From an uncultured archaeon (GTDB lineage: Archaea; Asgardarchaeota; Lokiarchaeia; Sigyniarchaeales; SOKP01): DNA of 27,639 nucleotides. Both the position numbers and the translations under genes were made by a program. Location of the stretch: the NCBI GenBank assembly GCA_964525635.1, contig CAZGJX010000054.1, positions 1-27,639 on the forward strand. The letters run 5' to 3'. This document shows positions 20,660-24,848 of the stretch, one piece after another; positions within the stretch are counted from its first letter, which is position 1, and each line of letters starts with the position of its first letter. A model generated the notes under the pieces. It did not search any database, was not told the DNA's origin, and saw only the letters and a list, made by a program, of their open reading frames with translations.

Positions 20660-20676
20660 TGCCCATTCATTTCCCA
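20660..20676 (+). repeat. 17-bp direct repeat, copy 1
   Basis: TGCCCATTCATTTCCCA, 16/17 identical to 24832-24848. Confidence 0.75.
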
Positions 20677-20911
20677 TTTCCACGATAAGAAAATTTAAAT
20701 TTAATAATTCTAAATTTAAGATAGATATAGAGTAGATATTGGAAAAAAAGAAATATTGCCAAAAATCGCAAAATTAAACTTAAAAAAACAAGTCAACAGG
20801 TTTTATTTGGAAATAATAAATCTAAATCTTAACATATATTATTTGTAAATTTAATATTTTAGAGATTTTATTATTAAGTAAGAATAAAATTGTTTTAAAT
20901 GCTAATTCTTA

Positions 20912-23900
20912 TTAATCTTGGCAATATGAGATAAATTTACCTACCTCATTTACAAAATCATTATCATTATATCCACCTAAATAATCTATAAGTCTATAAG
21001 ATATTAAATTTCCATAAATTTTTAATTCTTTCAATTTTATTAGATGTTCTAAACCCTTAAGTTCAGTTATATCATTTTTTGATAAATCTAGTCTTTCCAA
21101 TTTTGAGAAATGATTTAATCCTTTAATTTCAGATAAATGATTTCCTGAAATTTCTATATATTTTAAATGTTGTAATACCTTTAATCCTTTAATTTCATGG
21201 ATTTGATTATCATTAAGATATAACCACTGAAGATTATATAATTCATTAAATCCAGATATCTCAGTAATTTTATTTTTATTGAGATTTATAGTAGTTATAT
21301 TAACTAAATTTTCTAAATTTTCAATCTCCCTTATTTTATTATTCTCAAGAAATAAAATTTTTAATTTCAAATTAGAATCTAGATTTTTAATCTCATTTAT
21401 TTGGTTTTCTGAGAGATACAAAGATGTAAGGTAATTTAATTCGTTCAATCCTTTTATCTCGGTAATTTGATTCCCTGAAAGGTCTAGCGTATTAAGGATT
21501 TCAATATTATCTAATCCTTCTATCTCAATTATTTGATTCTTTGAAAGATTTAAATACATAAGATAATTTAACTCATCCAATCCTTTTATTTGGGTAATTT
21601 CATTATTCTGCAAATATAATGAATTAAGATTAAGAAAATAATCTAATCCATGTATTTCGGTTATTTTATTCTGTGATAGATCTAGCAATTTTAAATTATA
21701 AAGTTTCTTTAGATCATCAAATTCAACGATCTGATTATTTTGAAGTGATACTTTTTCTAGTTGAAGAGAATTTCGTCTAATTCTAAAATTATGAATTTTA
21801 TTGTCATGAAGATATAACTCTCTTAAGTTTGTTAACTTATTTATTCCTTCTAATTTAACAATTTGATTTTTATTAAGATATAAACATTTTAAATTGACAA
21901 GAGCATCTAAATTATTAATTTCTTTAATACTATTTGAATTAAGATTTAAGGATTCTAGGCAATGAAGAGAATCTAAACAATTGATATTATTAATACAATT
22001 GTTTGAGAGATCTAGATTTTTTAAATTGAAAAAATGATCTAATCCATTAATTCTGGCTATATTATTATTGTTAAGATTTAAATATTCTAATCTGTTGTTT
22101 TTTTCTAAGTTTTTGATCTCAATGATTTCATTATCAGAAAGGCTTAAATTGTATAATAGGAATTGATTTTTTAATCCATTTATATCACGGATTTTATTAG
22201 AATTAAGATATAAATATGTTAATTTAATAAGATTATCTAATCCTCTTATTTCTATAATTTGATTTTTAGAAAGATTTAAATTATAAAGTTTATGAAGGTT
22301 TTCTAATCCTTTAATCTCGGAAATTTTATTACCTGAAAGATCTAAATATTCAAGATTTGGAAGGTTTTCTAAGCCATTAATTTCTCTAATTTTATTATTA
22401 TTTAGATAGAGATTATAAAGTTTTGAAACACAGTTTAAATTCTCGATTTCTCTGATTTGATTTCCTGACATACTTAAAGTAGTTAAGTTAGGAAGAGCAT
22501 CCAAATTCTTCAATTTCATTATTTGATTATCTTCAAGATATAATTTTTCTAGCCTAGATAGTTTATTCAAATTCTTGATTTCGCTAATTTTATTATTATC
22601 AAGGTATAACCATAATAGATTTTGTTGATTATTTATATTTTTTATTTCATTAATTTTATTAGATGAAAGGTTTAATGTAGTTATTGAACGTAATTGTTCT
22701 AATCCCTTAATTTCGCTAATAGAATTATTGTTAAGATAGAAACTACGCAGATTTGAAAGAGAATCTAATCCTTCGATTTCGTTAATAGCGTTATATGATA
22801 AATCTAGATAGTCTAAATTAGAAAGATAATTTAAACCAGTAATTTTAGTAATTTTATTATAATCAAGAGAGAGCGATCTTAATTTTGAAAGATTATCTAG
22901 ATTATTAATTTTAGTAATTTGATTTTCAGAAAGATAGAGTGAATTTAAGTTAGCTAATAGATCTAATTCTTTAATTTCATATATACAATTACGCGATAGA
23001 TCGAAGTAATTGAGATTTGAACAATTTCCTAAATTTTCTATATTTGTTATATGATTATCAGACAGATTTAAATTCTCTAATTTATAGAATTCACTTAAAT
23101 TCTCGATTTTACTGATGCTATTGGATTTAAGATCTAATAGATATAGATTTTTCAGATTTTTTATTCTACTAATTTTTTTTATATTATTATGACTAAGATA
23201 GATCTTTGTTAGATCTGTAAGATTATCTAATCCTTGAAGTTTAGTAATATTATTAGCGTTGAGATATAATGTTTGTAAAGATTTTTTATTTTCTATACCC
23301 TTAATTTCATTTATATTATTATAACTAAGATTTAGTGTTGTAAGACTTTTAAGCTCATTTAAACCCTCCATGGTTATAATCAAATTATTACTTAAATTTA
23401 ATGTATCTAAGTTTACTAGATTATCCAGATTAGCTATTTTATCAATGTAATTGTTGAAAAGGATTAGTACCTCAATCTTCTCTAGGGAATTAAGTCCTTC
23501 AACTTTATAAAGTCTGTTATCGGATAGATTCAATGTTTTCAAATTTACTAATTTTTTTAAATTATTTATTCTATTAATTTGATTATTTGTTAGACCTAAG
23601 TAATCTAGATTTACAAGAGAATCTAATCCGTCAATTTTATCTATATTATTCAAATTCAAATCTAAAGATACCAATTTATTAAGATGTTCTAATCCTTGGA
23701 TCACTTTTATGTAATTAGATGCTAAATATAAAACCTCTAGGTTTTTTAACTGTTCTAATCCTTTTATTACATTAATTTGGTTTTTGTTAAGATCTAACTC
23801 TCTTAAATTAACAAGGTTTTCTAAGTTTTCAATATTTATTATATAATTCCTTGCGAGGCATAGTTCCTCTAAATTAATTAGTGAATCTAAACCTTGAATC

Positions 23901-24715
23901 ATATTAAGATAGTTTCCACATACACACAATTTCTTTAAATTCTTAAGATTTTCTAATCCACTAAGTGTCTTAATAAGATTATTATTGAGTTCCAATTCCT
24001 CTAATGTAGTAAAAATATCGATTCCTTGTATTTTTTCAATATTATTGTTATTAAGATAGAGTTTTTTTAAATTTGATATATTTTCTAATCCTTCTATTTC
24101 ATTAATATTACCAATTTTCAATCCTGATAAATTTAATTCATTATTAATAACAGGTATTATCTTACCCCTTAATTTTATATACTCAATACTAATTATATCA
24201 CATAGAAGAACAATTTCTTCTTCTGTAAAAAGTTCAAGATATCCTTCTTCTAGCAAATAATTTACGACTGGTTTAAATTTACTCTCTAGTCTATAAATTA
24301 CCTCATCTTTTAGTAATTTTTTAGCTTTTGGATCTCCTACTTCATTAAGCTTCTTTAGTAAAGGAAATGCTAAATTTCTATGAAGGATACACGTATTATA
24401 ATCATGTTCTACCCAAGCCTGTAAATTGGAACAATGACCCCAAAATTCTGTTTCTGGGGAAATTATTATTTCCTTATTATCTTCTGGATATTCTAACCTG
24501 GAATCTAATTTTTCAGCAATCTCATCAATAGAATCAATCTTATTATATGAAGCTACATCTTCTATTGGAATATTTAAAAGGAGAAATTTACACTGATCAA
24601 ATAATTGATCTAAGACATAAATATTCGTAGAAGTACCTTCTAATTTAATTGTAAGGTATTCATTTAGTCTACATTCTTTATTTGATTCTGGGTCTAATAT
24701 GTTTAGTTTCGTCAT
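20912..24715 (-). CDS. Giant LRR protein: FWGHCSN N-terminal domain plus roughly 47 SDS22-like repeats
   Basis: PETEFWGHCSNLQAWVEHDYNTCILHRNLAFPLLKKL followed by 22-aa LRRs; paralog of 8323-11178. Confidence 0.93.
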   Translation of the reverse strand: MTKLNILDPESNKECRLNEYLTIKLEGTSTNIYVLDQLFDQCKFLLLNIPIEDVASYNKIDSIDEIAEKLDSRLEYPEDNKEIIISPETEFWGHCSNLQAWVEHDYNTCILHRNLAFPLLKKLNEVGDPKAKKLLKDEVIYRLESKFKPVVNYLLEEGYLELFTEEEIVLLCDIISIEYIKLRGKIIPVINNELNLSGLKIGNINEIEGLENISNLKKLYLNNNNIEKIQGIDIFTTLEELELNNNLIKTLSGLENLKNLKKLCVCGNYLNMIQGLDSLINLEELCLARNYIINIENLENLVNLRELDLNKNQINVIKGLEQLKNLEVLYLASNYIKVIQGLEHLNKLVSLDLNLNNIDKIDGLDSLVNLDYLGLTNNQINRINNLKKLVNLKTLNLSDNRLYKVEGLNSLEKIEVLILFNNYIDKIANLDNLVNLDTLNLSNNLIITMEGLNELKSLTTLNLSYNNINEIKGIENKKSLQTLYLNANNITKLQGLDNLTDLTKIYLSHNNIKKISRIKNLKNLYLLDLKSNSISKIENLSEFYKLENLNLSDNHITNIENLGNCSNLNYFDLSRNCIYEIKELDLLANLNSLYLSENQITKINNLDNLSKLRSLSLDYNKITKITGLNYLSNLDYLDLSYNAINEIEGLDSLSNLRSFYLNNNSISEIKGLEQLRSITTLNLSSNKINEIKNINNQQNLLWLYLDNNKISEIKNLNKLSRLEKLYLEDNQIMKLKNLDALPNLTTLSMSGNQIREIENLNCVSKLYNLYLNNNKIREINGLENLPNLEYLDLSGNKISEIKGLENLHKLYNLNLSKNQIIEIRGLDNLIKLTYLYLNSNKIRDINGLKNQFLLYNLSLSDNEIIEIKNLEKNNRLEYLNLNNNNIARINGLDHFFNLKNLDLSNNCINNINCLDSLHCLESLNLNSNSIKEINNLDALVNLKCLYLNKNQIVKLEGINKLTNLRELYLHDNKIHNFRIRRNSLQLEKVSLQNNQIVEFDDLKKLYNLKLLDLSQNKITEIHGLDYFLNLNSLYLQNNEITQIKGLDELNYLMYLNLSKNQIIEIEGLDNIEILNTLDLSGNQITEIKGLNELNYLTSLYLSENQINEIKNLDSNLKLKILFLENNKIREIENLENLVNITTINLNKNKITEISGFNELYNLQWLYLNDNQIHEIKGLKVLQHLKYIEISGNHLSEIKGLNHFSKLERLDLSKNDITELKGLEHLIKLKELKIYGNLISYRLIDYLGGYNDNDFVNEVGKFISYCQD

Positions 24716-24831
24716 ATTATGATTATTATTTTGAAAGTAAAGTGATAGCTCATCAATACTTCTAGATGATTTCGTTAATACACCTTTTATTATTATAAGT
24801 CTACTTGATATTTAAAATCTTCTTTCAAAAC

Positions 24832-24848
24832 TGCCCATTCTTTTCCCA
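24832..24848 (+). repeat. 17-bp direct repeat, copy 2
   Basis: TGCCCATTCTTTTCCCA. Confidence 0.75.

Follow-up and report, generated by a model that had tools for sequence, protein, structure and literature searches.

The question raised by contig C54, from the genome of an uncultured member of the Promethearchaeota (Loki-type Asgard archaea), is why one 17-bp motif stands on either side of a giant leucine-rich repeat (LRR) gene that itself lies between two divergent arrays of transfer RNA (tRNA) genes, the His array and the Asn array. The whole 27.6-kb contig (27,639 nt) formed the window of this analysis; the host genome (G000) comprises 4.45 Mb in 245 contigs, has a GC content of 26.8%, and was compared with further genomes of the same genus (G001, G002, and G003) and with genomes of other genera. 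A sequence-only reading of the window had proposed either that an LRR cassette had inserted into an ancestral bidirectional tRNA promoter, with the repeats as attachment (att) sites or target duplications, or that the motif is a shared operator. Conservation and position of the motif indicate that it is probably a cis-regulatory site upstream of the tRNA-array promoters, most likely one bound by a putative transcription factor.

The repeat proved genuine, and chance does not account for it. As had been read from the window, the 17-mer occurred at 20660–20676 and 24832–24848, on the plus strand in both cases and with 16 of 17 positions identical. Read on the minus strand the motif is TGGGAAAWGAATGGGCA, and it contains two TGGG half-sites 11 bp apart, i.e., one helical turn. 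Allowing up to three mismatches, the two copies were the only matches in the window, compared to a mean of 0.14 matches in shuffled sequences, none of 100 shuffles yielding two. The description of the repeat as GC-rich also held, and it was the only GC-rich 17-mer repeat (at least 8 G/C, at most one mismatch) that lay wholly in non-coding DNA of the window. The remaining GC-rich pairs belonged to paralogous LRR coding sequence, except for a near-repeat at 11460/20669; Markov-1 random windows averaged 0.23 pairs. A genome-wide search for further copies, which had been recommended, revealed no third copy with at most one mismatch to the originally proposed pattern in the 4.45 Mb. The next-best match had two mismatches and was located inside an open reading frame (ORF), and the next-best sites also included a tandem pair at a promoter on contig C16 (see below). 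The order of elements is not explained by a misassembly at the repeat, which at 17 bp is too short for that, and G001 independently has the same order.

The near-repeat mentioned above measures 18 nt with one mismatch (11460–11477, within the ORF at 11225–11932, vs. 20669–20686) and overlaps the right end of copy 1. It contains two GGGAAAT units on the minus strand and is rarer than random expectation; it is probably due to chance.

Nearly all relatives retrieved by means of ribosomal protein S8e carry the label Promethearchaeota. Because the host belongs to the Promethearchaeota, the promoters were read as archaeal ones with a B recognition element (BRE) and a TATA box, and the TATA-like boxes are presumed to mark active promoters. 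The sequence TTTAWATA was enriched 30–130 nt upstream of long ORFs in the host genome, as expected of a TATA box. The locus is organized as follows:

19098–20390, minus strand: tRNA array of 11 genes (His ... Pro), predicted by ARAGORN and Rfam.
20391–20635, minus strand: conserved leader of approximately 245 nt, from the TATA box to tRNA-His, with long invariant stretches in the His-side alignment.
20636–20652, minus strand: BRE-like GCGAAAAGC and TATA box TTTTATAT (20643–20636) of the His array, 16 nt downstream of copy 1, assigned by reading of the sequence.
20660–20676, minus strand: motif copy 1, TGGGAAATGAATGGGCA on this strand, putative upstream element of the His-array promoter, in the same place in G001, G002, and G003.
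20912–24715, minus strand: LRR gene encoding 1267 aa with approximately 48 repeats of 22 aa, with an orthologue in the same position in G001 (44% identity).
24809–24831, minus strand: predicted LRR-gene promoter, consisting of a 15-nt spacer (24831–24817) and the TATA box TTTAAATA (24816–24809), with spacing and TATA box conserved in G001.
24832–24848, minus strand: motif copy 2, TGGGAAAAGAATGGGCA on this strand, between the divergent LRR and Asn-array promoters, 17/17 identical in G001.
24873–24888, plus strand: BRE-like GCGAAAG and TATA box TTTAAATA (24881–24888) of the Asn array, conserved in G001 and G003.
25170–26273, plus strand: tRNA array of 11 genes (Asn ... Ile), two with introns, from tRNA gene prediction.

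The LRR gene is the only ORF of at least 80 aa between the two motif copies. Its start codon lies approximately 95 nt beyond its TATA box (24816–24809), and its stop codon is followed 236 nt downstream by copy 1. The Asn array has a leader of 280 nt (24889–25169), headed by GCGAAAG and TTTAAATA.

Both copies had been described as lying just upstream of an array promoter. This applied to each of them, copy 1 being located 16 nt upstream of the His-array TATA box and copy 2 being located 32 nt upstream of the Asn-array TATA box on the plus strand; copy 2 is, in addition, 15 nt upstream of a minus-strand TATA box directed at the LRR gene. The same distances recurred in other genomes. On the TGGG side, the TATA box was found at +15 for copy 2 of G000, for both copies of G001, and for the sites in G002, G003, G064, G067, and G053, and at +16 for copy 1 of G000. 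On the opposite side it was found at +31/32 for copy 2 of G000, copy 2 of G001, and G064; in G070 and G073 a distance of 31 nt was read by eye. As expected of an upstream site, the distance to BRE/TATA was conserved in two genera, +15/16 applying to one side of the motif and +31/32 to the opposite side. The estimate that collapsing the two copies would leave the array promoters approximately 40 bp apart was too low, as about 65 nt would remain between the array TATA boxes. Weak similarity between the surroundings of the two copies extended through the TATA box (62 nt with 73% identity, 24789–24848 vs. 20621–20676). When the LRR upstream region, the 3′ flank of the gene, and the two leaders were used as BLAST queries against the host genome, nothing but AT-rich noise was returned beyond this promoter similarity of copy 1 and copy 2.

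On the plus-strand side of copy 1 (20677–20705), a further TATA-like box was observed 12–17 nt from the motif in G000, G001, and G002. It points into the 3′ end of the LRR gene and may be a vestige of an old Asn-side promoter or an antisense promoter.

The locus was present in G001–G003 at approximately 68–71% DNA identity. On the His side, the four genomes could not be aligned upstream of the motif; conservation began exactly at the motif, with 15 of its 17 positions invariant, and continued through BRE/TATA into the highly conserved leader. Copy 2 was 17/17 identical between G000 and G001, and conservation extended from the motif as far as the LRR TATA box, whereas the LRR 5′ untranslated region was not conserved. 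Conservation of the motif where its flanks are unalignable indicates, from the alignments, that it is under selection. The order in G001 was Asn array, motif, LRR orthologue (1031 aa, 44% identity), motif, and His array. The motif copies were 3.4 kb apart in G001 vs. 4.2 kb in G000 because the number of LRR repeats differs. In G003 both junctions were present and the contigs broke there, the first 12 bases of copy 2 forming the end of one contig. G002 kept the His-side module, next to which a remnant of the LRR 3′ end was fused to small-GTPase (Arf/Roc-like) genes (L025, C266, 5700–6540); in G001 these genes lie beyond the Asn array (L024, C157). G002 thus appears to have undergone a deletion of approximately 5 kb, in which the Asn array, copy 2, and most of the LRR gene were lost. 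The Asn array was not found elsewhere in the G002 assembly, which suggests that this array is dispensable. Absence of the motif from homologous loci, which the sequence-only reading had named beforehand as evidence against it, was not what we observed, as the motif was kept within the genus and also in genus g5.

Genus g5 also provided sites free of the LRR gene, in answer to the earlier suggestion to search relatives for empty sites. In G064, G067, G070, and G073, all of this other genus, the two arrays stood back to back, 590–610 nt apart, with one or two motifs but no gene in the intervening DNA. In G064 and G067 the arrangement was Asn TATA box, 31 nt, a motif variant, 12 nt, motif, 15 nt, and His TATA box, the tandem motifs being 29 nt apart from start to start. 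G070 and G073 had a single, oppositely oriented motif, with the His TATA box at a distance of 31 nt and the likely Asn TATA box at 26 nt. Spacings of 15 nt and 31–32 nt were thus common to the window and the g5 sites. Within the host genus no empty allele was found. Different cargo between the repeats, the other outcome that had been suggested, was not seen either: G001 carried the orthologous gene and G002 the remnant of the LRR 3′ end. A DNA search of other genera detected the arrays in g1 and g5 only, and an Rfam tRNA scan of G005, G006, G010, G013, and G016, from five other genera, found tRNA genes that were dispersed and often contained introns, without any arrays.

Beyond this locus, the motif recurred at other promoters. 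Matches with at most one mismatch were found in 41 of the 121 genomes of the family, approximately 51 matches vs. 7 for a reversed control; a slightly wider pattern was found in 110 of the 154 genomes of the order, far more often than its reversed control. Sites fetched from outside the genus lay mostly outside any ORF of at least 100 aa (20 of 24), and at least 12 had a TATA box 2–15 nt downstream. In the host genome, tandem motif variants 30 nt apart from start to start were present on contig C16 (37367–37413). A TTTAAATA box lies 14 nt downstream of them, and behind it come a weak, sub-threshold tRNA-like element and two tRNA genes with low scores (Phe, Trp); in G001 and G003, a similar site was located 13 nt from a TATA box. 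At two or more loci in genus g11, the motif was located 2–3 nt upstream of a TATA box. At one of these, motif and TATA box were followed by a conserved leader of approximately 250 nt and an ORF of 51–61 aa beside a family-4 glycosidase (GH4) gene; the other led into a small ORF and a gene for a PfkB-like kinase. A further site, next to an MFS transporter gene, had the motif a few tens of nucleotides from the likely TATA box of a divergent gene. The motif was accordingly present at several promoters, as expected of a regulon: those of the His array, the Asn array, the LRR gene, and the C16 cluster, plus the loci in other genera.

Two side observations concern these loci. The unit at C16:37367–38034 (L145, 468–1135) was conserved in G001–G003, and pieces of it were repeated several times on contig C5 of G003. 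The g11 leader (L039, L040, and L054, approximately 1500–1980) contains two long-range helices and is followed by a strong ribosome-binding site and the conserved ORF (DYYKDWDS...); situated beside the GH4 gene, it looks like a regulatory leader.

The motif is read as a cis-regulatory DNA element because it lies outside the predicted transcripts, is conserved, keeps a register with the TATA boxes, occurs singly or in pairs about three helical turns apart, and is found at few promoters; the two TGGG half-sites 11 bp apart suggest a putative protein bound to one face of the helix. In this lineage the motif would form the center of a compact bidirectional BRE/TATA promoter (TATA box, 31–32 nt, motif, approximately 15 nt, TATA box) driving two divergent arrays. 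In the host genus this promoter would be split, with the LRR gene between two motif copies and transcribed from its own module of motif, 15 nt, and TATA box, built like that of the His array. One factor acting at both copies would then place the two arrays and the LRR gene under common control, and joint regulation of the LRR gene with the arrays is probable. The earlier proposal of a shared operator fits the conserved motif, its fixed distance to the TATA box, and its presence at other promoters, including that of a third tRNA-like cluster. The assumption that such an operator serves two arrays was right for both of them and incomplete, since three promoters are involved here, including that of the LRR gene.

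Several findings weigh against a cis-regulatory site of this kind. The distance between motif and TATA box varied across loci (2–3, 12–16, 26, and 31–32 nt) in both orientations, which is more variation than a single mechanism would be expected to show. On contig C146, the Ser/Leu tRNA cluster had a degenerate match only, so that the motif is not general to tRNA promoters; matches with three mismatches were not enriched in intergenic DNA of the host genome; and the related genomes are non-independent samples. A candidate for the binding protein, a small winged-helix gene with sub-threshold Pfam matches, divergent from a g11 motif site, was rejected, as no homologue was found in the host genome.

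An explanation of another kind would make the motif part of the promoter itself, i.e., an upstream contact or DNA-shape element for TBP, TFB, or RNA polymerase that was copied with the His module to the LRR gene. The TATA spacing fixed at two modules and the weak similarity extending through the TATA box agree with this, as does the motif in g11, which abuts the TATA box at the BRE position. However, the motif has a specific, GC-rich sequence whose half-sites are separated by one helical turn, its tandem pairs are spaced by approximately 29–30 nt, it occurs in both orientations and at several distances, and each genome has few promoters that carry it. Taken together, these features are what one would sooner expect of a specific regulator than of an element general to promoters, and we consider a basal element unlikely. 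An action at the RNA level (processing, termination, or a small RNA) or a neutral leftover is still harder to reconcile with the data and appears the least probable of the explanations weighed here. Copy 1, 236 nt past the LRR stop codon, could join a read-through transcript, but both copies are upstream of all three predicted TATA boxes and therefore outside the predicted primary transcripts, and no Rfam family matched the motif and no hairpin was evident in it. Neutrality is excluded by near-perfect conservation in two genera despite unalignable flanks.

The alternative suggested by the layout of the locus is that the copies are att sites or a target-site duplication left by a mobile 4.2-kb LRR cassette, which could be excised or exchanged. 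Direct repeats do bracket a single gene, LRR genes form a large expanding family in these genomes, and the g5 arrays stand back to back without the gene, with exactly one copy in G070 and G073. Against this, no integrase, transposase, or other recombinase was detected in the interval or among the window ORFs scanned, and the LRR gene encodes LRR domains only; the earlier remark that the window has no recombinase was thus confirmed for the ORFs scanned, four of which were without a Pfam match. The empty sites of G064 and G067 carry two tandem copies, which speaks against the strict form of this alternative. In both G000 and G001, 15 nt separate the repeat from the LRR TATA box, a register shared with the His promoter and unexpected for the ends of cargo; the motif is found at unrelated promoters and in genera without tRNA arrays, and flanks no further LRR gene in the genome. 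No other cargo was found; G001 has the orthologous gene and G002 the LRR 3′-end remnant. On these points, the att or target-duplication proposal is not supported, and a mobile cassette is very improbable. An origin from a tRNA end, as would fit an att site, was also rejected: a four-mismatch match to a tRNA-like 3′ end on C146 shared an 11-mer only, for which approximately 2.5 chance occurrences per genome were estimated, and neither copy was preceded by a T-arm. In G016, motif and tRNA seemed to overlap only because their coordinates happened to coincide on two separate contigs. A reading as an origin-recognition box was dropped, as the motif lacks a dyad and the window ORFs scanned yielded no Orc1/Cdc6 domain.

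For the history of the LRR gene under the cis-regulatory reading, the simplest course would be a tandem or duplicated motif-promoter module, as in G064, whose two parts were separated by the arrival of the gene. Because the arrays were seen in two genera only, there is no outgroup to root insertion vs. loss; insertion in the host genus, rather than loss elsewhere, is somewhat favored. The proposal that the LRR cassette inserted into an ancestral bidirectional promoter is consistent with the back-to-back arrays of g5 and plausible, and the direction of the change is unrooted. The paralogous LRR gene at 8323 in the window had no motif upstream, and the promoter therefore did not travel with the LRR family. 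Improbable is an extended version in which a dedicated regulator uses the motif as its operator and turns on, together with the giant LRR protein, an accessory tRNA set that is largely free of introns. If true, the locus would be a back-up module for translation, expressed conditionally and coupled to a repeat-protein sensor, e.g., for stress or virus attack on tRNAs; the LRR gene would have entered this circuit by capture of a promoter module.

The closest documented analogue of the motif, by arrangement, is the upstream activator sequence of GvpE at the PA/PD gas-vesicle promoters of Halobacterium salinarum and Haloferax mediterranei (Bauer et al., 2008; PMC2241852). It consists of two 8-nt portions upstream of the BRE, the sequences overlap centrally between the divergent promoters, and an altered distance abolishes activation (PMC2241852). 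Like the GvpE site, the motif is an archaeal element of approximately 20 nt with two short conserved portions that lies between two opposite promoters and would serve both. It differs in sequence and phylum, in the larger distance between the TATA boxes, and in its putative control of tRNA arrays and an LRR gene instead of protein operons; in the host genus the promoter pair is moreover split by a gene. Short direct repeats also flank integrated elements, as integrase att sites or as target-site duplications of transposons. These resemble the present repeats in surrounding a gene that is absent from the homologous site of relatives, whereas the absence of a recombinase, possible two-copy empty sites, selection on the motif, the TATA register, and the occurrence at other promoters set the motif apart from them. 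The Ss-LrpB and MDR1 boxes are palindromic or metal-responsive operators of known proteins, arranged in tandem with regular spacing. Several boxes about three helical turns apart near a promoter are likewise seen in G064 and, in the host genome, on C16; unlike the Ss-LrpB and MDR1 boxes, the motif is a direct repeat of half-sites.

A literature search found no described cis-regulatory element or regulon of Asgard archaea. The element is of an ordinary kind and a new example in this group, where a precisely delimited, conserved upstream site offers a concrete handle on regulation. It also shows how a lineage-specific LRR gene can be wired to tRNA-array promoters, and a tempting reading of the locus as a mobile cassette is removed as unsupported.

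Further features of the window and of the tRNA genes were observed. The window encodes ribosomal protein S8e, SRP19, a proteasome subunit, four LRR proteins, a WD40 protein, and a protein with a weak TIR match. Rfam detected only tRNAs in 18800–26600 and in 20 motif-bearing loci, with no family for the motif or the leaders. The array leaders (20391–20635 and 24889–25169) are, within the genus, better conserved than the surrounding intergenic DNA and contain conserved hairpins; a leader of the His type was recognizable in genus g5 as well. Divergent arrays totaling 22 genes, mostly intron-free, were seen in two genera of the family only. Finally, at C146:8040–8150, a 5′-truncated tRNA-like piece (anticodon arm with GTT, T-arm, and acceptor 3′ strand) lies between two divergent Leu tRNA genes, and 15 nt beyond it comes a stretch similar to the 5′ half of a tRNA; the arrangement could reflect truncation, splitting, or permutation of a tRNA.

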